A DNA stretch of 33,134 nt from a virus (taxonomy: Duplodnaviria; Caudoviricetes). Made by a program: the position numbers and the translations under genes. Where the stretch lies: positions 1-33,134 of the IMG/VR virus record IMGVR_UViG_3300017913_000956. One strand, written 5' to 3'. This document shows, one piece after another, positions 5,133-17,489 of this stretch. The notes under the pieces are model-generated. The model did no database searches and was not told where the DNA came from. It saw nothing but the letters and a program-made list of their open reading frames with translations. Every line of letters begins with the position of its first letter. Position 1 is the stretch's first letter.

Positions 5133-5385
5133 TTATCTCCCCCGAACATGCCATGTAGCCAGCCCCATCAATATAGTTGTCCATGTGTTTTGGATTAGAC
5201 CTTATTCTAGCACATTTCAAGAGGTTCATCATCACACCTACATCTATGGCAGAAATATCTGCACCAATGTAGGCTGACCACAAGGCGGCAATGGTATGGA
5301 AGTTATCTTCCATCTCACCGTGGTCTGCCGCCCTATCCTTAGTTACATATTCACTAGCCGTAGCCAGTATCTCAGCACGTTTCAT
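5116..5385 (-). CDS. DUF6378-like protein
   Basis: DRxxDHG...NFxxIAxLWSAY...MxLLKxAR...DNYIDGAGY. Confidence 0.85.
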   Translation of the reverse strand: MKRAEILATASEYVTKDRAADHGEMEDNFHTIAALWSAYIGADISAIDVGVMMNLLKCARIRSNPKHMDNYIDGAGYMACSGEISGKAT

Positions 5386-5669
5386 CAGGCTACCAACCGC
5401 ATAACTTTATTAAGAGATACGTTGACTCTTGAACGGCCACGGCTTCTCTTTTTGATTTTGTTGTGGGCGTAATAGACAGTGGAGTGGTCACACTGAAATG
5501 CCCCGCCAACATGACTGAGTGACAGACCCAGCACCTCGACACAGACGTACATTGCGATGTGTCGTTCAGTTGCAAATCGTCTGCGTTTACTTTGGATTTC
5601 ACTGATTGATGCCCCTGTAGCTAATGCTGTAGCCTTAATCACCTCATCAATGCGCTTGTCATAGTGCAT
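5385..5669 (-). CDS. DnaA C-terminal (domain IV) HTH-like DNA-binding protein; alternative start at 5759
   Basis: EIQSKRR...RHIAMY...LSLSHVGGAFQCDHSTVYYAHNKI matches the DnaA domain IV signature. Confidence 0.8.
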   Translation of the reverse strand: MHYDKRIDEVIKATALATGASISEIQSKRRRFATERHIAMYVCVEVLGLSLSHVGGAFQCDHSTVYYAHNKIKKRSRGRSRVNVSLNKVMRLVA

Positions 5670-5874
5670 CGAATGGAAGGTTCTCACCTTCCTCTGGCTT
5701 AACCTTTTCGTAATAGCTTCTAAGGCAGTACGAATTACAGAAGTTTTCTCCGTTGCCATTGCATGTTCCCTCGAATTTCCAGTTGAAGTTTCTGCCGCAG
5801 TCAAAGCAAGTGTCAAACCTGTTTGGCGTGAAAGCCTTCGACTGCGACTTCTTTTTGCGGTTATACCACGCCAT
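5659..5874 (-). CDS. Small Zn-finger-like protein
   Basis: CFDC...FCNSYC; coupled to the SSB stop. Confidence 0.6.
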   Translation of the reverse strand: MAWYNRKKKSQSKAFTPNRFDTCFDCGRNFNWKFEGTCNGNGENFCNSYCLRSYYEKVKPEEGENLPFDAL

Positions 5875-6128
5875 TAGAACGGTATCTCATCATCCATGCT
5901 AGCTGGTTGTGCGGGTGCGCTAGACCCTTGCGGCTTCTCCACAAAGTCTGACAGCTTCAGGCTGATATACTTATTGCCTGATGATTGGGCTACGCTATCC
6001 CATGCAGAGATGCTGTATTTCTTGCCGTCAATCGTGACAGTGCCACGCATGTCTGGACGCTTTTCATTGTCACCCTTGTCGTTGGGAAACAAGCTACCAG
6101 TCATATCTTTTTGAACATACTCAGCCAT
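5874..6128 (-). CDS. ssb: Short single-stranded DNA-binding protein
   Basis: GSLFPN...RPDMRG...ISAW...YISLKL with acidic DDEIPF tail; follows the annealase. Confidence 0.8.
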   Translation of the reverse strand: MAEYVQKDMTGSLFPNDKGDNEKRPDMRGTVTIDGKKYSISAWDSVAQSSGNKYISLKLSDFVEKPQGSSAPAQPASMDDEIPF

Positions 6129-6813
6129 TTATTAACTCCTGTTTTCTAGCTGTGAATAATGCAACCTGTTGTTCTGTCAGATTGCCCTTTGACCTGTTGT
6201 AAAGCGACTTCAGTGCATCCAAGTCTGGACACATGGAAATCTCTTGTTCTAACGTGAGGCCGACTTTCTTAAACTCAGAGGGTTGTGAGGTAGACAACGC
6301 ACCTTGGACGGTTGTTTCAGATTTTATAGCAATTACCTCGCCATCTACCTCGCCTCTTTCTGCCTTGCTTCTGGAGTTGTCCAGTCCAGCAGAAACTGGT
6401 AAATCCTCACCGTGCCATAACTGCAAGCCAAGGCCACAAAACATTGCAACACACTTGGTCATGCAACGCTGTAGCGCATTGTCTACATCTTTGCTGGTGG
6501 GATTTTTAATTGGTTGATTTCTGAAATCAGTTATGGGGAATATCTCAGAAGTCTCGAAGCCTTCCCAGATGATTGAACACTGCACCCACGCATGACCCTG
6601 TGGGTCTTTCATATATGGTGCAATGGTTTCGTTTGATGTATCACACCTGTATGTGTGCTTGATAATCTTGCAAGTCGGGAATACCGTCTTAGCATAGTGA
6701 TAGGCTATTGACCACGGTAGGTAGTCAAAACCGTTCTTTTTCTGCACAAATTTTTCGATGGGCGCAGATTGCACAAAGTTATGCATCATTTTGTAAGGAC
6801 TTAAATTTTCCAT
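6121..6813 (-). CDS. Sak/Rad52-like ssDNA annealing protein (DUF1071-type)
   Basis: KKNGFDYLPWSxA, PITDFRN, ALQRCMTKCVAMFCGLGLQLWHGEDLP. Confidence 0.85.
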   Translation of the reverse strand: MENLSPYKMMHNFVQSAPIEKFVQKKNGFDYLPWSIAYHYAKTVFPTCKIIKHTYRCDTSNETIAPYMKDPQGHAWVQCSIIWEGFETSEIFPITDFRNQPIKNPTSKDVDNALQRCMTKCVAMFCGLGLQLWHGEDLPVSAGLDNSRSKAERGEVDGEVIAIKSETTVQGALSTSQPSEFKKVGLTLEQEISMCPDLDALKSLYNRSKGNLTEQQVALFTARKQELING

Positions 6814-7616
6814 AGATTTTTGGCCTCTTCTAGCGTTTCTTCATCCCAGTAAAAGCTAGTAAAGTCTGGTTCTACAAATCCCACTAGCACTGCTGGGTCA
6901 GTTGATATTTTCAATAGGTTCTGCCAACGCAATGCTTTCTGCCTTACCTCTTCAAGGTAGTAGGCTATCACATGCGGCTGTAATTCTTCGCAATTATCAG
7001 GCGTGAAGAGGACGGCATCATGGTCAGCTATGTAGGCAACCGTAGGAACTAAACCAGTCGCCTTATGATAAATAGCTATCTGACACATATGATTGTATTC
7101 TGGTTGGGCGGGAATGGAAGCCCTAGAATACCCTCTGCTACCGTCCTTCTTCACAGCCCCTCTGCGAATCGCTTTTGTTTTTATTTCGCAGAACGAACTA
7201 GAAGAACAGAGGTCTATGTACCCTATAATCGGTACATCAATACCATCAAGCAATACCTCGACCCTCTGTTCATCCTTACTTCCCCCGAATGCTTCGCCTA
7301 GTAGGTTTAGGCCATTCGTAATCATATCTGGAAGTATCTCTTTATACTTATCACGCTTATCTTCTGGTTCTGAAGGCGGTGCAGTATGAAAATCTAAGTC
7401 AGCAACAGCCTTAACAATAGCTGTGTCTACATCTTCACCCAAGCACAACACAGATTGGATTGCGTTATGACAAGCAGTGCCGACTGCTGCATTAAACCCA
7501 ACCTTGGTGTCTTTTCTGCGTTCTTTAAGATACAAATAGCTGAAAACCCGATTTGCTGTGGGCTGGTTCAACTGGCTTGCACTGAAGTGCGGCACTTGTT
7601 CTGAATAGTGTTGCAT
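6801..7616 (-). CDS. PD-(D/E)XK exonuclease (RecB/Cas4-like superfamily)
   Basis: HFSASQLN, GTACHNAIQ, IGYIDL...EIKT, QIAIY; paired with the annealase. Confidence 0.85.
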   Translation of the reverse strand: MQHYSEQVPHFSASQLNQPTANRVFSYLYLKERRKDTKVGFNAAVGTACHNAIQSVLCLGEDVDTAIVKAVADLDFHTAPPSEPEDKRDKYKEILPDMITNGLNLLGEAFGGSKDEQRVEVLLDGIDVPIIGYIDLCSSSSFCEIKTKAIRRGAVKKDGSRGYSRASIPAQPEYNHMCQIAIYHKATGLVPTVAYIADHDAVLFTPDNCEELQPHVIAYYLEEVRQKALRWQNLLKISTDPAVLVGFVEPDFTSFYWDEETLEEAKNLWKI

Positions 7617-7624
7617 AATTTTAC

Positions 7625-7699
7625 GCTAAATAAATACTTGATTGTTTCCTCGTATAATATTACTAATGGCTATAAGTGTATTAGTCAAACAAAAAAATG
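7625..7699. promoter_or_regulatory. Divergent, overlapping sigma70-like promoters at the main strand switch
   Basis: Plus: TTGATT (7638-43), 17 nt, TACTAA (7661-66). Minus: TTGACT (7688-83), 17 nt, TAGTAA (7665-60). AT-rich gap between divergent operons. Confidence 0.6.
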
Positions 7700-7708
7700 G
7701 AGAAAATT

Positions 7709-7909
7709 GTGAAGCTAGCAGAATACATGGTCAGCAAGGGTTTGCGACAATCGGACTTAGCTAGAGAATTAAAGGTGTCTCAGGTTACGGTTCATAATTG
7801 GGTAAATGGCAAGCGGCCACCAAGCGGTCAGCACATGATGGATATTTATGTGATGAGTAAGGGCAGAGTTAATCTAAAAGATTGGGCAGAGTTATTCGAT
7901 GTACAGTAA
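7709..7909 (+). CDS. Cro-like XRE helix-turn-helix regulator (alternative start 7697)
   Basis: LRQSDLARELKVSQVTVHNWVNGKRPP; GTG after GGAG; first rightward gene. Confidence 0.88.
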   Translation: MKLAEYMVSKGLRQSDLARELKVSQVTVHNWVNGKRPPSGQHMMDIYVMSKGRVNLKDWAELFDVQ

Positions 7910-8087
7910 ATTTTATGAACAGCAGAACGAACGCTATCGCAAAGAACAGGCGAAGAAGAATGCTGAAAAGTGGGCTGAGATGCTGGACGATAATGCGTTT
8001 GGCGATGAGGTTGTGGACGAACCCACATATGCTAGGGTTGATAGACGGCCAAGCATTGAGGCGGTGAAGGGAAGTAGCATTGACTAA
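7899..8087 (+). CDS. Hypothetical protein
   Basis: 62 aa ORF overlapping both neighbours in operon fashion. Confidence 0.6.
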   Translation: MYSKFYEQQNERYRKEQAKKNAEKWAEMLDDNAFGDEVVDEPTYARVDRRPSIEAVKGSSID

Positions 8088-8466
8088 CGGACGTGTAAAA
8101 GGCGCAAATTTTGAAAGAGAAATCGCCAAAATGGTCATGAATGGGCTTGGTATTGACGATGTCAAAAGAGATATCGAACAATACAGGGCTGGCCTTCATG
8201 GGGATTTAATCGGGATTGACGGCTGGACTGTCGAACTGAAACGCTATAAGTCAGGCGTTACTTATCGTGCCGACTGGTGGGAACAATGCCTTTTAGCGGC
8301 TGAATATCAGGGAAACCATGCGGCACTTATTTGGAAGTACGACCGACAGCCGATTAATGTGCTTGTCAAGATGAGTAGTATCTCTGCTGATTATGCGGGT
8401 ATGGATTATGTCGCACAGGTGGATTTCAATACTTGGCTGATGCTTGTAAGGGAAAGCTGGGCATGA
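8080..8466 (+). CDS. Holliday junction resolvase (Hjc-like PD-(D/E)XK)
   Basis: KGANFERE...GDL...VELKR...WWEQ. Confidence 0.8.
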   Translation: MTNGRVKGANFEREIAKMVMNGLGIDDVKRDIEQYRAGLHGDLIGIDGWTVELKRYKSGVTYRADWWEQCLLAAEYQGNHAALIWKYDRQPINVLVKMSSISADYAGMDYVAQVDFNTWLMLVRESWA

Positions 8467-8816
8467 AGTTCAACAACACCTTTGCTTATGACTTAGCAAT
8501 AGGGCAGGCTGAAGAGATTTGGCTGAGTGAGGTGTTGGCTGGTTCTACGATGGAGATAAAGCGTGACTTTGTTGCCTGTCGGACTGGTAAGCTGTATGTT
8601 GAGTATTTCTGTTGGGGTAAGCCTTCTGGCATAGCGATAACTAGGGCTGATTTTTGGGCGTTTATTCTGGATGGCAAGCGTGTGATTATCGTGCCGACAG
8701 AACACTTGAAGGAAGTGTGCCGCAAAGCGTACCGCAATGGTGATGGAAACATAAAGGGCGGGGAAAGCATGGCTAGCCTCGGTGTATTAATAAAATTGGG
8801 AGATTTAATCAGATGA
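8463..8816 (+). CDS. PD-(D/E)XK-like nuclease-fold protein
   Basis: DLxxGxxxE...EIKRD...TGxxYVEY...PSGIxxTxADFW; ATGA overlaps at both ends. Confidence 0.7.
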   Translation: MKFNNTFAYDLAIGQAEEIWLSEVLAGSTMEIKRDFVACRTGKLYVEYFCWGKPSGIAITRADFWAFILDGKRVIIVPTEHLKEVCRKAYRNGDGNIKGGESMASLGVLIKLGDLIR

Positions 8817-9409
8817 GTATAAAAGCATTATCTTGGGCGTGGGATTATACCACTAAAGACCCATTAGAGAAGCTTGTGTTGCTATGTGTAGCTGACCATG
8901 TGAATGATAGCATGGGGCAAGCATGGCCGTCAGTGGAACGCATATGCGGAATGTGTGGGTGTTCACGCAGTACGGCTTTGAGAAAGCTGAAGCAGTTAGA
9001 AGATAAGGGTGTAATCATCAGGCAAAAACGGTTTAATAAGACCGATATTGTGGTGTTCACTTATCCAGAAAAAAGTGCTGATAAGGGTGGGTGTCAGACT
9101 GAGACGTGTCACACAGACACCCCAAATGGGCAGTTTGAGGTGTCACACAGACACACTAACCCTTATAATACTTTAACCCTTACTACTAGTAGTGAAAAAC
9201 GCTTTAAGAAGAATTATGCTAAGAAGAAGGAACTGTCTGATAAGCAGAAGCAGTTTGCTAGGACACTTGCTGACAGGCTATGGCAGAAGCACAAGCATGA
9301 GGGCTATCCGTTTCAGGTAATCTTAGATGATGTGGAAGTGTTCTTGCTTACTGACCAATCTGATGACAGTTGGATGAAGCTTGGTAATGGTTTGCCATCA
9401 CCTTTGTAG
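8813..9409 (+). CDS. Replication initiator (lambda O-like, N-terminal winged helix)
   Basis: MSIKALSWAW...KLVLLCVAD...AWPSVERI...SRSTALRKLKQLEDKG; repeats inside the linker. Confidence 0.85.
   Translation: MSIKALSWAWDYTTKDPLEKLVLLCVADHVNDSMGQAWPSVERICGMCGCSRSTALRKLKQLEDKGVIIRQKRFNKTDIVVFTYPEKSADKGGCQTETCHTDTPNGQFEVSHRHTNPYNTLTLTTSSEKRFKKNYAKKKELSDKQKQFARTLADRLWQKHKHEGYPFQVILDDVEVFLLTDQSDDSWMKLGNGLPSPL
9091..9193. repeat. Putative replication origin: iterons inside the initiator gene
   Basis: GTGTCAGACTGAGAC (9091), GTGTCACACAGACAC (9106 and 9140), then TAACCCTTA twice (9157, 9174) and palindrome ACTACTAGTAGT (9182-9193). Confidence 0.75.
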
Positions 9410-9944: not shown

Positions 9945-10012
9945 GTATTAGTTAAGTAATACACATATGTCAAACATTTTTGTTGAACTGCTTAACTTGT
10001 AGGTGGTACAAG
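9945..10012. promoter_or_regulatory. Back-to-back promoters for the moron (minus) and terS (plus)
   Basis: Minus: TTGACA (9973-68), 17 nt, TAATAC (9950-45). Plus, weaker: TTGAAC (9983-88), 18 nt, TACAAG (10007-12). Confidence 0.55.
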
Positions 10013-10017
10013 GGATT

Positions 10018-10500
10018 ATGGTTAGAAAAGGTAATTACAAGCGTAAGTGGACACCTGAACTGGTGGATGAGTATCTGAGGCGCATTTCTATTGAGGGAAT
10101 GAGTGCCAGACAGGTAGGCAAGATGCCTGACATGCCGTCTTACGAAAGCTTCCATGTGCTGAAGAGTAGAGACGCAGAGGTAAACAGGCGTTATTTGGAA
10201 GCGATGGAATCAAGGGCTACTGCCATTGATGACGAGATAGATGACGTTATCAAGGCCGTGGCTTCAGGTGAGATGGATTACAACGCAGGGCGGTTAGCTG
10301 TGGACACGATGAAGTGGCGCATGACGAAGCTGTATCCAAGGTTTTATGGGGATAATCAGCGTGTGGAAGTAGAACACAAGACTAGCTTTGTGGATGAGTT
10401 GAAGCGAGTTGCTGATAAGGTGCAGCAGCAGAAGATGATTGAAGCACAGGTTATAGAGGGTGAGGTGGTAGATGGGGGAGATGGTGAGAAAACTTCATAA
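10018..10500 (+). CDS. terS: Terminase small subunit (Sf6/P22-like)
   Basis: KWTPELVDEYLRRIS.GMSARQV...MPS...YxxA...RLxVDTxKWxxxKLxPxxYGD. Confidence 0.85.
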   Translation: MVRKGNYKRKWTPELVDEYLRRISIEGMSARQVGKMPDMPSYESFHVLKSRDAEVNRRYLEAMESRATAIDDEIDDVIKAVASGEMDYNAGRLAVDTMKWRMTKLYPRFYGDNQRVEVEHKTSFVDELKRVADKVQQQKMIEAQVIEGEVVDGGDGEKTS

Positions 10501-10602
10501 CCGCCACACGCACACGCACGAGGCTGTCAAATTCTTGACGATTGGTGCATGACGATGAGGATATACAACTGATGGTACACACAACTATTGCGTTCTCAAT
10601 AA

Positions 10603-10615
10603 TATCAATGACTTA
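10603..10615 (+). promoter_or_regulatory. IHF-binding site
   Basis: TATCAATGACTTA is an exact match to the IHF consensus WATCAANNNNTTR, in non-coding DNA. Confidence 0.6.
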
Positions 10616-10637
10616 CGCTGTTGATGCTTCCAATAAT

Positions 10638-10665
10638 CCCTTCCATAATATACATTATGCGACAA
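10638..10665 (-). other. dif: dif-like XerC/XerD recombination site
   Basis: Minus strand TTGTCGCATAA-TGTATA-TTATGGAAGGG; 18 contiguous nt (CGCATAATGTATATTATG) identical to E. coli dif; 11-6-11 layout; intergenic. Confidence 0.8.
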
Positions 10666-10787
10666 ATGCTTACCATTGGTAGGTATTTTTGCCGTCAAAC
10701 CTCTGACAGCCCCCCTTCAGATATGCGAGGGGGCGACAAGAAAAAAAACATACCCCTTCTAACCCCTTACCCCCCCATGAGGAAACA

Positions 10788-10949
10788 ATGAACCCTATTA
10801 CCCTACCCCCCGAAAAATTTGCTGAGTTCCTTAAAAAGCGCAGGGAAGCCCTTTGGAAGCTTGAACCTGAAGTTAGGGGCAAGAACAACCGCAGTTATTT
10901 GTCTAGCAGTTCTGTGAAGCGCAATATGCAGAGAAGGCGTACTCCATGA
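10788..10949 (+). CDS. Small basic protein, 53 aa (not in the ORF track)
   Basis: GAGGAAACAATG; MNPITLPPEKFAEFLKKRREALWKLEPEVRGKNNRSYLSSSSVKRNMQRRRTP; ATGA overlap with the next gene. Confidence 0.65.
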   Translation: MNPITLPPEKFAEFLKKRREALWKLEPEVRGKNNRSYLSSSSVKRNMQRRRTP

Positions 10950-12259
10950 CCCCTGAACAGCAGTTTGACGAAGCCAAGCGTTTATTTGACGCTGAGGAGT
11001 GGCAACAGGCCGCTATATTGTGTAATCGTGTTCTAGAGGTTGCAGAACATCCGTTGGTGATTAATCTGCTTGGCATGTGTTTACTGAAGATGGACAAGCG
11101 TGAGTTTGCTGAGAGGGTATTATATGAGGGGTTATCTCTGAAACCTGATTGTGTGCCTATTATGGCTAATCTGGGCAACATGATGCGTGAGGATTTACGG
11201 ATAAAACAGGCTAGGGATTTCCTAGAGGCGGCTATTCGTATTCAGCCAGATAACTATCAGGTGAACCATAATATGTCTGTGCTGTGTTTAGAGACAGGCC
11301 GTTTTGAGGACGGTTTACGGTACTCTAAGAGGGCAAGGGAGTTAGCCCCCGACAATCAGGCTATCAGGCATACTTACTCGCTAGCGTGTTTGCAGAACGG
11401 TGATTATGTTGGTGGTTGTCAGCATTATGAGGCGAGGAAGGGTGTGTTTCTGCGTGAGGCTGTTGAGTTGCCCAAGTATGAGGGTGGTAGTGGCAAGGTC
11501 ATTATTAGGCAGGAACAGGGCTTCGGTGACACGCTGATGGTTAGCCGTTGGTTGCCGAAGTTGCGTGAAATGGGTGCTGAACCTACTTTGGTAGCCCCCA
11601 ATGCGTTGTATGGGTTGATGGAAGAATCTGGGCTGTGTAGCGTTATGCGGGACGGTGACAGTGTGGATGATTTTACACATCATTTGTGGACAATGGATTT
11701 GATGTGCATGTTCGGCACTGACTGGTCTGCTGTTGATGGGAGTGCCTATTTTAAGGCTAATCCTGTGCTAGTTGATAAATGGGACAAGATGCTGGGTGAA
11801 CGTAAGAAGCCCAGAATAGGGTTCTGTTATAGTGGTAAAAGCAGAATTGAAAACTTCCATGCGTTCATTATTGATAAGCGCAGAAGCCTTACCATATCTG
11901 AGGCTCATAGTTTGATGAATGGCATAGATGCACAGTGGGTGAATTTGACCCGCGAGACAGGATTGCCAGATAGCACAGACTTTTCTGCACAGGTTGCAGA
12001 TTTTTCTGACATGGCTGGTTTATTGCGGAACTTAGACTTGGTGGTTACGGTGGATACTGCGCTGTGTCACTTGGCGGGTGGTTTGGGTGTGCCGACAATG
12101 GTATTGCACAGGCATGATACTTGCTGGCGATGGTGGCCTTACACTGATGAGACACCGCTTTATCAGAACATGAGACATTTTTATCAGCCTGAACCCTTTA
12201 ATTGGGTAGATGTAATTGAGGAAGTGCGGAATGCCATCCAATCAAAATTTGACGACTGA
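10946..12259 (+). CDS. TPR-repeat GT-B glycosyltransferase (FlmG/FlbA-like architecture)
   Basis: N-terminal TPRs (NLLG, ANLG, A..I.PD); EQGFGD motif; GT9-like end DLVVTVDTALCHLAGGLGVPT and WRW...LY. Confidence 0.85.
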   Translation: MTPEQQFDEAKRLFDAEEWQQAAILCNRVLEVAEHPLVINLLGMCLLKMDKREFAERVLYEGLSLKPDCVPIMANLGNMMREDLRIKQARDFLEAAIRIQPDNYQVNHNMSVLCLETGRFEDGLRYSKRARELAPDNQAIRHTYSLACLQNGDYVGGCQHYEARKGVFLREAVELPKYEGGSGKVIIRQEQGFGDTLMVSRWLPKLREMGAEPTLVAPNALYGLMEESGLCSVMRDGDSVDDFTHHLWTMDLMCMFGTDWSAVDGSAYFKANPVLVDKWDKMLGERKKPRIGFCYSGKSRIENFHAFIIDKRRSLTISEAHSLMNGIDAQWVNLTRETGLPDSTDFSAQVADFSDMAGLLRNLDLVVTVDTALCHLAGGLGVPTMVLHRHDTCWRWWPYTDETPLYQNMRHFYQPEPFNWVDVIEEVRNAIQSKFDD

Positions 12260-13634
12260 CCTGCTTTTGCAGATACATAATGACCCTGTTTTCTTTGTGG
12301 AACAGATTATCGGGGCTAAACCGCAGAAGTGGCAAGCTGATGCACTGAGGGCTATTGCGGCTAATGACAGGGTGAGTATTAAGTCTGGCCACGGTGTAGG
12401 CAAGACAGCTTTTGAGAGTTGGGTTGTGCTGTGGTGGCTGCTTAGTCATTATCCGTGCAAGGTAGCTGTAACGGCTAACACGGCACATCAGTTATCAGAT
12501 ATTTTGTGGACGGAAATAGATAAGTGGGCGAGGGGCTTGCCAGAGGGGTTTAAGAACCTGTTGGAGTTCAAGAACGATAAGATTAGCCTGAAGGGTGCTA
12601 GTGATAGCTATGCTGTTGCGAGAACCAGCCGCAGGGAGAACCCAGAAGCATTGCAGGGGTTTCACTCTGAGAACATGCTGTTTATCTGTGAGGAAGCATC
12701 AGGCATTCCAGATGTCGTGTTTCAGGTGGCAGAGGGTGCGTTATCGACTGAGGGTGCTAAGGTCGTCATGTGCGGAAACCCTACACGTTCTGATGGTTTC
12801 TTTTATGAGAGTTTTCACAGTATGCGGCATATGTGGCATAATATCACGGTAAGCTGTCATGAGGGTGAATATGTATCGCAGGACTTTCTGGACAACATGG
12901 CTGAGAAGTATGGTGAGGAAAGCAATGTTTACCGTGTGCGTGTTCTTGGCGAGTTTCCAACGCAGTCTGATGATGTCCTAGTGCCGCTTTACATTGTGGA
13001 AGAGGCCACGAAGAGGGATGTAGAACCGTCACCGACTACGCCTGTGGTTTGGGGATTGGACGTTGCTAGATTCGGTGGTGACAGGTCAGCGTTGGCTAAG
13101 AGGCACGGTCAGGTGCTTACAGAACCTATTAAGACTTGGCAGAACAAAGACCTGATGGAACTAGCGGGTATTGTGCTGACGGAATATGAGGCTTGCAACT
13201 ATCAGAGTAGGCCACAGGCGATTTATATTGACGCTATTGGGCTTGGTGCTGGACTAGCGGATAGACTGCGAGAGTTGGATTTACCAGCCGTTGCGGTGAG
13301 TGTGTCGGAGACTGCTAGCCTGAAGGAAAAGTTTGGCAGATTGCGTGATGAGTTATATTGGAACGCTAGAGAGTGGTTTGAGAACCGTGATGTGCATATA
13401 CCTGAAGATGACACGCTGATACAGGAGATTACAGGCATCAGGTATAAATATCTCAGCAATGGTAAGCTGAAGGTGGAATCAAAGGATGAGATGAAGCGTA
13501 GGGGGCAGAGAAGCCCTGACGTAGCGGATGCTTTTGTGCTGACATTTGCGGAACAAGGCGCTAGCGCTATGGGCTACACAAAAAGATGGGGCGGGAGTTC
13601 TAGCCCCCGCCCTAAGACAAATTGGATTGTATAG
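12231..13634 (+). CDS. terL: Terminase large subunit
   Basis: Walker A SGHGVGKT, Walker B FICEEASG, GNPTR, nuclease GLDVARFGGD and SPDVADA. Confidence 0.95.
   Translation: MPSNQNLTTDLLLQIHNDPVFFVEQIIGAKPQKWQADALRAIAANDRVSIKSGHGVGKTAFESWVVLWWLLSHYPCKVAVTANTAHQLSDILWTEIDKWARGLPEGFKNLLEFKNDKISLKGASDSYAVARTSRRENPEALQGFHSENMLFICEEASGIPDVVFQVAEGALSTEGAKVVMCGNPTRSDGFFYESFHSMRHMWHNITVSCHEGEYVSQDFLDNMAEKYGEESNVYRVRVLGEFPTQSDDVLVPLYIVEEATKRDVEPSPTTPVVWGLDVARFGGDRSALAKRHGQVLTEPIKTWQNKDLMELAGIVLTEYEACNYQSRPQAIYIDAIGLGAGLADRLRELDLPAVAVSVSETASLKEKFGRLRDELYWNAREWFENRDVHIPEDDTLIQEITGIRYKYLSNGKLKVESKDEMKRRGQRSPDVADAFVLTFAEQGASAMGYTKRWGGSSSPRPKTNWIV
13580..13612 (-). terminator. Minus-strand terminator embedded in the 3' end of terL
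   Basis: GGGCGGG/CCCGCCC stem followed on the minus strand by CATCTTTTT; just downstream of gene 13659-13979. Confidence 0.55.
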
Positions 13635-14380: not shown

Positions 14381-14651
14381 TTCCAGATTAGAACGTGCTG
14401 GCGTTAGTGGCTACAACAAGCCAAAGCGCACACCTAACCACCCCACAAAAAGCCATGTGGTTGTGGCCAAATGCGATGACGGTTCTATTAAGACAATCCG
14501 CTTTGGTCAGCAGGGTGTATCAGGTGCAGGTAAAAATCCGAAAACAGCATCTGAAAAAGCTAGACGTAAATCATTCAAAGCTAGACATGCAAAGAACATT
14601 GCTAAAGGAAAGTGTTCTGCGGCATATTGGGCTAATAAGGTGAAGTGGTGA
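14364..14651 (+). CDS. Small basic protein (DUF5754/DUF6321-like)
   Basis: IRFGQQG...RRKSFKARH...SAAYWANKVKW; GAGGTG RBS. Confidence 0.7.
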   Translation: MPKKPDSRLERAGVSGYNKPKRTPNHPTKSHVVVAKCDDGSIKTIRFGQQGVSGAGKNPKTASEKARRKSFKARHAKNIAKGKCSAAYWANKVKW

Positions 14652-15448
14652 TGCGCCCACAGGCCAACATAGTTGTGAACACAGCGCACGGCATGATGAT
14701 AGTTAATCGTAATGACTATCGCATGATTGATGAAACGCATGGATACGGTGTCGGGTTTCAGTTACTGAACACTGGCGAGTACGACATGCAGGAAATAAAC
14801 TTTGCTAAGTTCTGCCTGAACCAGAGGCTGAACGATTATGGCAAGGGCGTTGTGGCGATAGACTGCGGTGCGAACATTGGGGTGCATACGATTGAGTGGG
14901 CTAAGACCCTGCACAATGTTGGTTCTGTCGTGTCTTTTGAGGCGCAGGACATGGTGTACTACCAGTTGTGCGGCAATATAGCCATAAACAACTGCTTCAA
15001 CGTGACGGCCTATAACAGCGCTGTCGGTGATAAAAACTGCATTATTGATATCCCGAAGCCCAACTATTTTCAGCCATCCACATTTGGTTCTATGGAAATA
15101 AAGCAGAAAGAGGGCAGTGAGAATATTGGTCAGACACTGGGCAGCACGACCAAAGTTGAACAGATTGCGCTGGACGATTTGCCTCTTTCAAGACTGGACT
15201 TTATTAAGATTGATGTTGAGGGCATGGAGTTCGATGTGCTGGCTGGCGCACAGAACCTGATAGAAAAACACAAGCCACAGATGCTGATTGAGGTTATCAA
15301 GATTGACCAGGATAAAATGCGTAGCTGGCTAGAGGATTGGGGGTATGATATATATACCTTCGGTGGGAACTTTTTTGCCGTGCATAAATCTGATACAATG
15401 GCAAGTAAGTGTTCCACAGATGAAAACGGCAACATAAGGATAGGATAA
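14645..15448 (+). CDS. FkbM-family SAM-dependent methyltransferase
   Basis: IDCGANIGVHT, SFEAQ, LDFIKIDVEGMEFDVLAGA, PQMLIE. Confidence 0.92.
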   Translation: MVMRPQANIVVNTAHGMMIVNRNDYRMIDETHGYGVGFQLLNTGEYDMQEINFAKFCLNQRLNDYGKGVVAIDCGANIGVHTIEWAKTLHNVGSVVSFEAQDMVYYQLCGNIAINNCFNVTAYNSAVGDKNCIIDIPKPNYFQPSTFGSMEIKQKEGSENIGQTLGSTTKVEQIALDDLPLSRLDFIKIDVEGMEFDVLAGAQNLIEKHKPQMLIEVIKIDQDKMRSWLEDWGYDIYTFGGNFFAVHKSDTMASKCSTDENGNIRIG

Positions 15449-15667: not shown

Positions 15668-15891
15668 TGCCAGCACAGGCAGGACTTGGTAAATGGTTTG
15701 GCGAGAAGTGGGTTGACGTAAAGACTGGTGAACCCTGTGGCCGCAAGAAGGGCGAGAAGCGGGGATACCCAGCCTGTCGCCCTAAAGCTGTTGCTAGCAA
15801 GATTAGTAAGCAGGAAGCCAAGAAGAAAACTGGGAGAAAGCGTGTGAACTGGTCAACAACTGCTAGCGGCAAGAAGAGAAAGAAAGCGTGA
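15667..15891 (+). CDS. Small basic protein, DUF5872 C-terminal-half-like
   Basis: GLGKWFGEKWVDVKTGEPCGR...YPACRP. Confidence 0.7.
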   Translation: MPAQAGLGKWFGEKWVDVKTGEPCGRKKGEKRGYPACRPKAVASKISKQEAKKKTGRKRVNWSTTASGKKRKKA

Positions 15892-17489
15892 TGGCACAGA
15901 TTCCTCAAATGAGGTCTATAGGATTGCTGGACGATTTATCGCCAGAACAGCAAGCGCAGAGACAGCAAGATGTCTATATGGGATTGCTTCAAGCCCCCGC
16001 TTATGGCGCAATGATGATGCCGCTATCAGGCATTTATGAAACGACAGGGCAAATGCCAGACCCTGCCAATCCTTCCCAAAAATTACCATCCACTGCAGAA
16101 CTTATTCGCAGAGGAGACATAGAAGGGCTAGGCTATCAGGGTCTTGGTGTTCTCGGTGATGTTATGTATGCGGCTAGCCCAGTTGCACCGTTTTTAGCGC
16201 CTATGGCGGCAGGGCTGAAGGGGACTGCGGCAACATCCAGAGGGATTAGGGCGTATCATGGTTCGCCACACCATTTTGATAAATTCAAGTCATCTGCTAT
16301 AGGAACTGGCGAGGGGGCGCAGGCTTATGGTCATGGTTTGTACTTTAGTGACTCTGAAGGAATAGCAAAAAATTATAGGGATAATTTGGCGCAAAATACA
16401 TACACTCTTCCTAGTGGGCAGAAGCAACCTAATATGACTGTCGGTGATGGAGAAGTTCTACACAACTATTTTGATGATGAGTTAAATCATGCGATGTTCA
16501 CTAGGCCAGACAGAGGAAATGTAGATTTAACCAATAGGTATGCGGCAAAAAAATTAGGTTCAAATGATGGCGCTGGCATTAAATACAACCAGCAGTCTGA
16601 TGACACAAGAAGGAAAATAAGAGACAGTTTTTCAAGCGATATTTCTGCTGACATCGTGATAGCGTTGGATGAAGCTGGCGACCCTAAAGACGCTGTGGAA
16701 TTTTTACGTTCAGAGGCTGAAAGAATTTCAAACAACTATCCAGCTATTGGATATAATTCATTTGAAACCAATTTGGCTAGAGATATGAAATTGGAAGCGG
16801 CCAAGCAGTTGGAAAACTATGTCGAGTCTGGCCTTAAACGAGAAAAAGGCGCAATGTATGAGGTGAATATTGATGCCTCGCTTGATGAGCTTATAGATTA
16901 TGACAAGACATTAGGACAGCAATCTCCTGAAGTAAAAAAGTTTTTTGAAGATGCGGCTGATGAACTTAACGTAGATGATGCTATAAATCTGGGGTTTGAC
17001 CCTTTTGAGATGAAGGACGGTGACATTGAGAAGAAGGCTATAGAGCTAGCGAAAAAAAGGTTACTTGACCCAGATGGTTCTGTCGGCACTTTCTTAGGCA
17101 CTATGGCTTCACTTAGGGGAAGCGCTGATGCTGGGGAATCATTGTTGATGTCAAAAGGCGCAAAAGGAATTAAGTACGCTACAAATGACACGAGGGATAA
17201 GCAGTTTGAGATTCTTCTTGATGTGAGGGGTAAGCCTTATGGCACAGAACCAATTTTTGCCAGAGACATTAACCATGCAAAACAGATAGAAGAGGAATAC
17301 AAGGGGAAGGGTTTTGGCGTTGAGATTAAAGATGCACGGAAAAAAAATTACGTTGTTTTTGACGAGAACCTAATTGACATTATGCGGAAATACGGACTTC
17401 TAGCGCCTATGGTTGGTGGCGCAGGGGCTTATGGTTTGATGCAAGAGCCTGAACAGAGTAAGTCAGGGTTATTAGAACTAGAAGGATAG
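15888..17489 (+). CDS. Protein with an ART-PolyVal-like ADP-ribosyltransferase domain
   Basis: AYHGSPHHFDKF...IGTGEGAQAYGHGLYFS, GAMYEVNI, KGIKY and NYVVFD core motifs separated by long insertions. Confidence 0.75.
   Translation: MMAQIPQMRSIGLLDDLSPEQQAQRQQDVYMGLLQAPAYGAMMMPLSGIYETTGQMPDPANPSQKLPSTAELIRRGDIEGLGYQGLGVLGDVMYAASPVAPFLAPMAAGLKGTAATSRGIRAYHGSPHHFDKFKSSAIGTGEGAQAYGHGLYFSDSEGIAKNYRDNLAQNTYTLPSGQKQPNMTVGDGEVLHNYFDDELNHAMFTRPDRGNVDLTNRYAAKKLGSNDGAGIKYNQQSDDTRRKIRDSFSSDISADIVIALDEAGDPKDAVEFLRSEAERISNNYPAIGYNSFETNLARDMKLEAAKQLENYVESGLKREKGAMYEVNIDASLDELIDYDKTLGQQSPEVKKFFEDAADELNVDDAINLGFDPFEMKDGDIEKKAIELAKKRLLDPDGSVGTFLGTMASLRGSADAGESLLMSKGAKGIKYATNDTRDKQFEILLDVRGKPYGTEPIFARDINHAKQIEEEYKGKGFGVEIKDARKKNYVVFDENLIDIMRKYGLLAPMVGGAGAYGLMQEPEQSKSGLLELEG

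Follow-up and report, generated by a model that had tools for sequence, protein, structure and literature searches.

We found a dif-like, Xer-type site beside the terminase genes of a marine tailed phage in which searches matched neither a tyrosine nor a serine recombinase, and the same site recurs in every close relative that could be scored. Our preferred reading, to which we give slightly less than even odds (about 0.45), is that this conserved site lies in a predicted terminal repeat and that the host proteins XerC and XerD recombine its two end copies, circularising the injected linear genome.

Gene content of the phage

The window, by which we mean the whole stretch of DNA analysed, is a 33,134-bp virus record that is 96% complete by CheckV. 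We scanned its 62 ORFs against PHROGs and Pfam. The matches describe a podophage with an SU10-type portal, capsid and adaptor, small and large terminase subunits (terS and terL), and a lambdoid replication arm comprising an O-like initiator, Sak, SSB, a RusA-like enzyme and a Cro-like HTH protein. The features used below are:

6121 to 7616, minus strand: Sak annealing protein and exonuclease-like gene (SSAP_Sak, E 1e-21; phrog_1706, weak)
8080 to 8466, plus strand: RusA-like resolvase (phrog_244, E 4e-13)
8813 to 9409, plus strand: lambda O-like replication initiator (phrog_1032, phrog_391)
10003 to 10500, plus strand: terS (phrog_1482, E 7e-26; Pfam Sf6_terminase, E 2e-19)
10501 to 10523, plus strand: left boundary motif, an alternating C/purine run with invariant columns C8, C10, C12 and C14 (alignment A1)
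10603 to 10615, plus strand: IHF-like motif TATCAATGACTTA, 22 bp from the XerD arm
10638 to 10648, minus strand: XerD arm; inner TTATG kept, outer bases drifting in relatives
10649 to 10654, minus strand: 6-bp spacer TGTATA; host-type in the window, with seven other spacers among relatives
10655 to 10665, minus strand: XerC arm TTGTCGCATAA; positions 2–11 invariant in 16/16 distinct phage sites; dif in the SAR116 order has an identical arm
10664 to 10688, strand not applicable: imperfect inverted repeat, lineage-restricted and outside the core
10710 to 10734, plus strand: C-run/G-run motif, conserved in relatives
10946 to 12259, plus strand: TPR/glycosyltransferase gene (Pfam TPR, Glyco_transf_9), inserted between the module described below and terL
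12216 to 13634, plus strand: terL, 89% identical to that of Phage C72C1 and 47% to that of phiM5

As the preliminary description had reported, there is no integrase and no CI among the 62 ORFs in either database; the only regulator of the CI/Cro kind is a 70-aa Cro-like HTH protein (7697–7909). Tyrosine recombinases (PF00589) were found in 0/6 records (the window, C72C1 and four relatives from IMG/VR, of which two are 100% complete), and the same set yielded no phage-encoded recombinase of the Cre type. Serine recombinases (PF00239), DUF3653, which we take to be the domain of the Xer activation factor XafT, and the FtsK-gamma domain were each found in 0/5 records. Phage C72C1, a complete circular record of 34,944 bp that is syntenic with the window and carries the Xer site, has no integrase among its 61 CDS. 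The idea that an integrase hides in the missing part of the genome fails because complete relatives have no tyrosine or serine recombinase.

Several genes outside this argument deserve mention. Most relatives have no TPR/glycosyltransferase gene between the module and terL; together with an FkbM methyltransferase (14645–15448) it possibly modifies surface or virion glycans. A small protein of the early region (5385–5816) contains a DnaA C-terminal helix-turn-helix domain (PF08299, E 5e-15) and is a possible DnaA-box binder. Upstream of the portal, a 533-aa protein (15888–17489) has a weak, below-cut-off match to ART-PolyVal. The major capsid gene of C72C1 (L328:8530-9731) is annotated as two pieces with an insertion between them.

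A Xer-type site in the gap after terS

Read on the minus strand, positions 10665 to 10638 are TTGTCGCATAA-TGTATA-TTATGGAAGGG, in the gap that follows terS. This dif-like 28-mer is present exactly as described earlier, including the 18 contiguous nucleotides that it has in common with dif of E. coli K12; with dif of Magnetospirillum AMB-1, as given in Table 1 of PMC2731167, it has 23 in common. The layout is that of a dif-type site, with two 11-bp arms and an inner palindrome around a 6-bp spacer, in non-coding DNA.

Within the window alone, a loose dif pattern that allows one mismatch gives a marginal result (4 matches against 1.2 expected), and the IHF-like motif, scored against what we take to be the IHF consensus, is not beyond chance (5 matches against 2.2 expected, with 11/100 shuffles reaching 5). 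Both are raised above chance level because they are conserved in relatives. A second dif-like match (17363–17390) is weak, has a poor XerD arm and lies within a coding region, and we regard it as a chance match.

The IHF-like motif lies where the preliminary description placed it. With at most one mismatch, it occurs in 34/41 distinct XerD-side flanks (background, 35/552 windows), and only at an offset of 14 in forward orientation or of 34–35 in reverse. Variation falls on the four free positions in the middle, and the TTA end is constant. As the two placements are 20–21 bp apart, about two helix turns, a bend at either would keep its phase. At the chromosomal dif loci of hosts, an exact IHF consensus lies within 45 bp of the XerD arm in 4/117 cases (L237, L273, L300 and L303; background, 4/9118 windows); a role for IHF at some of the chromosomal sites is therefore also possible.

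The hairpin proposed on the other side of the site fared less well: the inverted repeat exists (10/12 Watson-Crick pairs, 1-nt loop), but its region folds no better than shuffled sequences (z −1.6, 14/200), and it is missing in several lineages that keep the Xer site. A scan with what we take to be the E. coli-type KOPS motif gave a single match, 143 bp from the site on the XerC side and conserved in 3/37 relatives; the converging KOPS of chromosomal dif were not seen. On these grounds we rejected both the hairpin and the KOPS readings of the region. The 28-mer itself is, by its sequence, a real and conserved Xer-type site, putative as to binding and cleavage by XerC and XerD.

Conservation among relatives and other phages

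An exact 21-mer from the site had 0 matches in IMG/VR; because the spacer varies in this way, we used degenerate and protein-led searches. Relatives were chosen by protein rather than DNA, from 13 terS loci and 80 terL loci (87 distinct). With the window and C72C1 these make 89 loci, of which 61 were scorable, that is, anchored on the C-run/G-run motif with enough flank. We defined a close group by terL identity of at least 81% or by selection through terS; it includes the window, C72C1 and one contig counted twice.

The site is present in 39/39 scorable close relatives, and six more carry it but missed the anchor expression. Among distant loci (terL 75–80%), 11/22 scorable ones carry the site as an inverted tandem whose XerD arm is poor and 11/22 are without a site; of the distant unanchored loci, two more carry the site and about four seem to be without it. 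The tandem form, found at L171:1804-1840 and in ten relatives, has tandem XerC arms 23 bp apart, inverted with respect to the C-run, with a degenerate XerD arm and with the module upstream of terS. At this distance the Xer site is dispensable.

Sixteen distinct 28-mers were recovered from the family. XerC positions 2–11 and the inner XerD arm are invariant, apart from the innermost XerD base, which is changed in 2/16; there are eight different spacers, and the outer XerD bases drift. Fixed arms with a free spacer are, as far as sequence can tell, what would be expected of a recombination site that is bound by protein and recombines with another copy of itself.

Outside the family, blastn of three site regions against GenBank phages returned only microviruses, inoviruses and chance matches. 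A pattern scan of 24 GenBank phage records gave five matches (C72C1, MJing1, HMO-2011, Hodr and DB virus 2), convincing only in C72C1 and MJing1; phiM5, ICBM1, HTVC010P, phiGT1 and 15 others had no site. We rejected the match in HMO-2011, which falls inside the lysozyme gene. MJing1 (OQ540923; L380:1211-1238) is labelled a Microcystis phage, yet its Xer site, some 90 bp downstream of terS, is of the alphaproteobacterial type; its host label may be wrong.

The degenerate-pattern scan of IMG/VR gave at least 120 matches, with 80 loci having full flanks and 30 fitting a stricter dif-like form. A terminase gene lies within about 1.2 kb in 11/30 of the strict loci; four of these belong to the present phage family, two are near-duplicates, and six distinct loci lie outside the family. 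In a control of loose matches (44 of 50 scanned), 1/44 was by a terminase gene (Fisher p 1e-4; 0.006 without the family). Another 4/30 strict loci (L004, L041, L068 and L069) adjoin a plasmid-type replication gene (phrog_22671) and are probably xrs of alphaproteobacterial plasmids or phage-plasmids. By these pattern counts, a Xer site next to the terminase is widespread but patchy.

A packaging module and a predicted genome end

The Xer site lies inside a non-coding module of about 250 bp between two conserved motifs, both of which the preliminary description had missed and which point to a genome end. The left motif directly follows the terS stop codon in the window, lies 150–260 bp before the C-run in relatives and is a candidate terminase signal. 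Both motifs persist in lineages without the Xer site. In some lineages the module is upstream of terS, and there the site moves with the C-run/G-run motif and not with terS. One contig (L134:1-500) has a terL 100% identical to that of the window together with another type of terS (50%), and the two genes have no module between them. We did not count it as a counter-example, although no site is in view: its terS type differs, and its module would lie upstream, beyond the contig. The terS gene and the module thus behave as an exchangeable packaging cassette.

The position of the genome end was predicted by analogy with Sinorhizobium phage phiM5 (MF074189). Its terL is related (47%), and a like C-run/G-run motif lies between terL and a terS-like ORF that has no significant likeness to terS of the window. 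Over this motif a 357-bp direct terminal repeat is annotated, in one GenBank entry, starting 314 bp before the C-run and ending 12 bp after the G-run. Unlike the present phage, phiM5 replicates with its own DNA polymerase. By this analogy, the right genome end of the window would lie near 10746, about 12 bp beyond the C-run/G-run motif, and a terminal repeat from about 10400–10500 to 10746 would include both the IHF and the Xer sites. Since the phiM5 repeat ends 12 bp after the like motif, the Xer site is likely to be in a terminal repeat. The annotated terminal repeats of phiM5 and ICBM1 that we checked contain no Xer site.

Assembly data gave no independent sign of the repeat. In X2, X4 and X8, but not in X11, the unitig over the module has about 1.7–2 times the depth of its near-identical neighbours; sharing between strains explains this depth equally well, and we did not count it in favour of a terminal repeat. 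Contig ends near the module scatter: two lie 0 and 16 bp past the G-run and the others at 56–444 bp.

Across lineages the Xer site is 10–44 bp from the C-run motif. The distance from the XerC arm to the end of the C-run clusters at 17, 26–29, 32–42 and 48–50 bp, with steps of about 9–10 or 18 bp between lineages; the clusters are broad and the lineages not independent (phase concentration 0.4–0.5), making the steps a weak sign of phasing. Arrays that resemble what we take to be the Fur box were seen beside the C-run in L180:8008-8086, L183, L184, L187, L199, L201 and L151, either replacing the Xer site or beside it. Judging from these arrangements, this slot beside the C-run seems to be a pad on which sites for different DNA-binding proteins of the host can be exchanged. 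Of the coupling to packaging suggested earlier, the tie to the packaging region, through the terminase locus and the C-run motif, is borne out; the coupling itself is a proposal.

Host assignment

We searched GTDB with the 20-nt core of the site and obtained at least 120 contigs, nearly all from Alphaproteobacteria among the 80 matches listed. The arm pattern was single-copy in 5/5 genomes tested. In the order of the SAR116 genome behind locus L217, 142/192 genomes match TGTCGCATAA-N6-WTATG, 140 of them once, against 0 in the control. The full XerC arm equals that of the phage in 17/22 SAR116-order loci read. The arms are thus of the alphaproteobacterial dif type, as had been suggested, and fit the SAR116 order best. 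From this arm sequence SAR116 bacteria are the likely host; we do not call them certain because the same arm occurs in 11/119 other host sites.

Five of five SAR116-order genomes carry two Xer-like recombinase genes and an IhfA-like gene, with matches mostly below or near family cut-offs. Pelagibacter (SAR11) is described in PMC2731167 as lacking Xer. Compared with chromosomal dif of Alphaproteobacteria (the SAR116 order, and Magnetospirillum in PMC2731167), the phage site has in common the 11-6-11 layout, the XerC arm, the inner XerD arm, the non-coding location and the single copy; it differs in lying on a tailed phage, in its drifting spacer and degenerate outer XerD arm, in its fixed IHF-like partner and in having no conserved KOPS. 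Host spacers are mostly TATATA or TGTATA, and 7/8 phage spacers are absent from the 144 SAR116-order matches, only the TGTATA of the window being present. The outer GGG of the XerD arm is in none of the commonest host arm ends listed.

Two SAR116-order genomes have a second match, one of them assembly G149. There the match is on a 4.9-kb contig (L427; G149:C100:1-4949) with a terS of the same PHROG family, a Xer site and an IHF motif on the XerC side, and its genes are 60–80% like those of C72C1 and L147. The spacer of this contig (GATCCA) differs from that of the other site in G149 (TCTATA) at 4/6 positions. The contig is a phage fragment, because no portal gene was found in G149; it may be mis-binned, and it is a possible host link to the SAR116 order.

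Proposed function and alternatives

We propose the following sequence of events. By analogy with phiM5, the terminase would cut just beyond the C-run/G-run motif and package the genome plus a repeat of 250–350 bp, so that both ends would carry the IHF and Xer sites. After injection, XerC and XerD already present in the host would bind both copies, and IHF, judging from its motif, would bend the flank. XerC would then exchange the first strand pair, and the crossover might be completed by XerD, host RuvC, the RusA-like enzyme of the phage, which is a candidate finisher of the XerC-made Holliday junction, or replication. The resulting circle would be the template for the O-like initiator; an initiator of the lambda O kind implies a circular template. 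Because both recombining sites would be the phage's own copies, nothing would hold the spacer constant, and its divergence from that of the host would block insertion at dif. We prefer circularisation because it explains the position of the site, its free spacer, its perfect XerC arm, the lack of a recombinase and the need of the O-like initiator for a circle.

Phage P1 cyclises its terminally redundant DNA through Cre at loxP. The present site is like loxP in being a tyrosine-recombinase site near the packaging start and, by prediction, at both ends; it is unlike it in that the phage has no recombinase of its own, so that host XerC and XerD would serve, in the short repeat and in the IHF-like accessory site.

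Several points stand against circularisation. The genome end of the family is a prediction by analogy with phiM5, which depends on one annotation, a low-complexity motif and a terL of 47% identity. PhiM5 itself has no Xer site, and the site is missing in 11/22 distant relatives. Sak and the exonuclease-like gene, a candidate for the phage's own homology-based route to a circle, could circularise the repeat without Xer. The weak point is activation. Xer sites of 28 bp, with a 6-bp spacer, are described as needing FtsK or accessory proteins on the XerC side (10.1101/2024.04.05.588136); here the IHF motif is on the XerD side, KOPS is conserved in 3/37 relatives, and neither XafT nor an FtsK-gamma domain was found in the records searched. 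The spacing steps of about 9–10 bp suit a protein scaffold as well as recombination.

Such a scaffold, formed by binding without crossover, is possible, though we rate it well below circularisation. XerC, XerD and IHF would build a bent structure by the terminase cut site and aid recognition, cutting, motor stop, repeat duplication or end protection; IHF is known to act at lambda cos. The XerC arms cluster about a helix turn apart relative to the C-run, and the phase of the IHF motif is fixed. In sister lineages this slot is taken by tandem XerC arms or by Fur-box-like arrays, the module and the terS type were swapped together before an identical terL (L134), and 2/16 sites have a changed innermost XerD base, all of which suits a binding pad. 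Yet the spacing clusters are broad and come from non-independent lineages, and all close relatives keep the exact 11-6-11 geometry and both inner arms, which is beyond simple binding of one protein.

The preliminary description had also offered resolution of circular multimers. In this alternative, host XerC and XerD resolve dimers or multimers of a replicating circle, or of a plasmid-like carrier state, as at plasmid xrs; among crossover-based uses we rank it second to end-to-end circularisation and think it unlikely. A free spacer and a degenerate outer XerD arm are described as typical of plasmid xrs (10.1101/2024.04.05.588136), and four of the 30 strict IMG/VR sites adjoin a plasmid-type replication gene. 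The O-like initiator, Sak and RusA imply recombining circles. Like cer, psi and the FtsK-dependent xrs of large replicons, the phage site would recombine with itself, has an unconserved spacer and has an accessory DNA-bending element nearby. At cer and psi, however, the accessory proteins are ArgR, ArcA and PepA on the XerC side, whereas the phage has an IHF-like motif, mostly on the XerD side, and is tied to the terminase locus. Multimer resolution also gives no account of that linkage or of the short distance to the C-run motif, no partition or repressor gene was recognised among the 62 ORFs, many of which are unannotated, and phages with a lytic cycle depend on concatemers.

The other use put forward earlier, insertion into chromosomal dif by a phage that has no integrase of its own, is not supported by our results, and we consider it improbable. 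The phage resembles integrative elements that exploit Xer (IMEX, such as CTX, VGJ, TLC, GGI, gokushoviruses and inoviruses) in carrying a host Xer site without an integrase. The window site, with its canonical XerC arm, host-type TGTATA and divergent outer XerD arm, has the pattern described for the attP of TLC and GGI, leaving a slight chance of rare insertion. In known IMEX, one side of the spacer or both are described as staying identical to dif (PMC5357621). In the present family only the window site has a host-compatible spacer; in 15/16 distinct sites the spacer is not of the host type, with variation on the XerC side as well as the XerD side. Among 32 metagenome contigs with the phage XerC-side flank, from samples that are mostly viromes, 31 continue in phage-type DNA (0/31 with a host junction), one ends in the site, and none joins host DNA. 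Within 3 kb of 80 host sites we saw one weak TPR match and none of the family's genes for terminase, portal, capsid or replication. A search of 192 SAR116-order genomes, many of them incomplete and with no positive control, detected neither terL nor capsid. Prophage junctions at host dif were thus not found in any of these sets. Unlike the IMEX named above, the phage is a tailed dsDNA virus. No CI or XafT was found.

That the site is out of use for recombination, as a promoter, the start of a small ORF or a relic of captured host DNA, is the least probable reading: two sigma70-like matches overlap it (10608–10637 and 10621–10649) and an ATG lies within the XerC arm, but the −35 hexamer varies (23 different hexamers in 41 flanks), ORF length ranges from 4 to 200 codons across relatives, and a relic would not keep both arms as spacer and flanks change.

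Relation to known uses of Xer and implications

The mostly open-access literature that we surveyed treats Xer recombination in IMEX, plasmids and chromosomes; we found no Xer site at a tailed-phage terminase locus in it. The portions of PMC8477408 and PMC10386132 covered make no mention of such a site, and "xer" occurs 0 times in that of PMC8477408. From the comparisons made here, what seems to be new is the SAR116 link, the two-offset rule for IHF, the bracketing motifs and the phiM5-based mapping of the genome end. The site appears to be a real and conserved variant of Xer hijacking, for which we propose a function.

So far, Xer hijacking has meant integration, by filamentous phages, microviruses, other non-tailed phages and islands, and the resolution of plasmid dimers. 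Tentatively, we picture widespread tailed phages of abundant marine alphaproteobacteria whose genome ends are built around a docking pad for XerC, XerD and IHF, phased with the terminase cut. The host resolvase would circularise the genome at entry, perhaps triggered by the packaging or ejection motor in place of FtsK; the private spacer would act as a self-only key, and sister phages would swap the pad for sites of other host proteins. If true, this would be a third use of Xer, by which lytic-looking tailed phages have their incoming genome closed ahead of all phage gene expression. It would account for circularisation in phages whose terminal repeats are short and would add IHF to the accessory factors of Xer. 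It would also provide a cheap predictor of hosts for uncultured phages, pointing here to SAR116 rather than SAR11.
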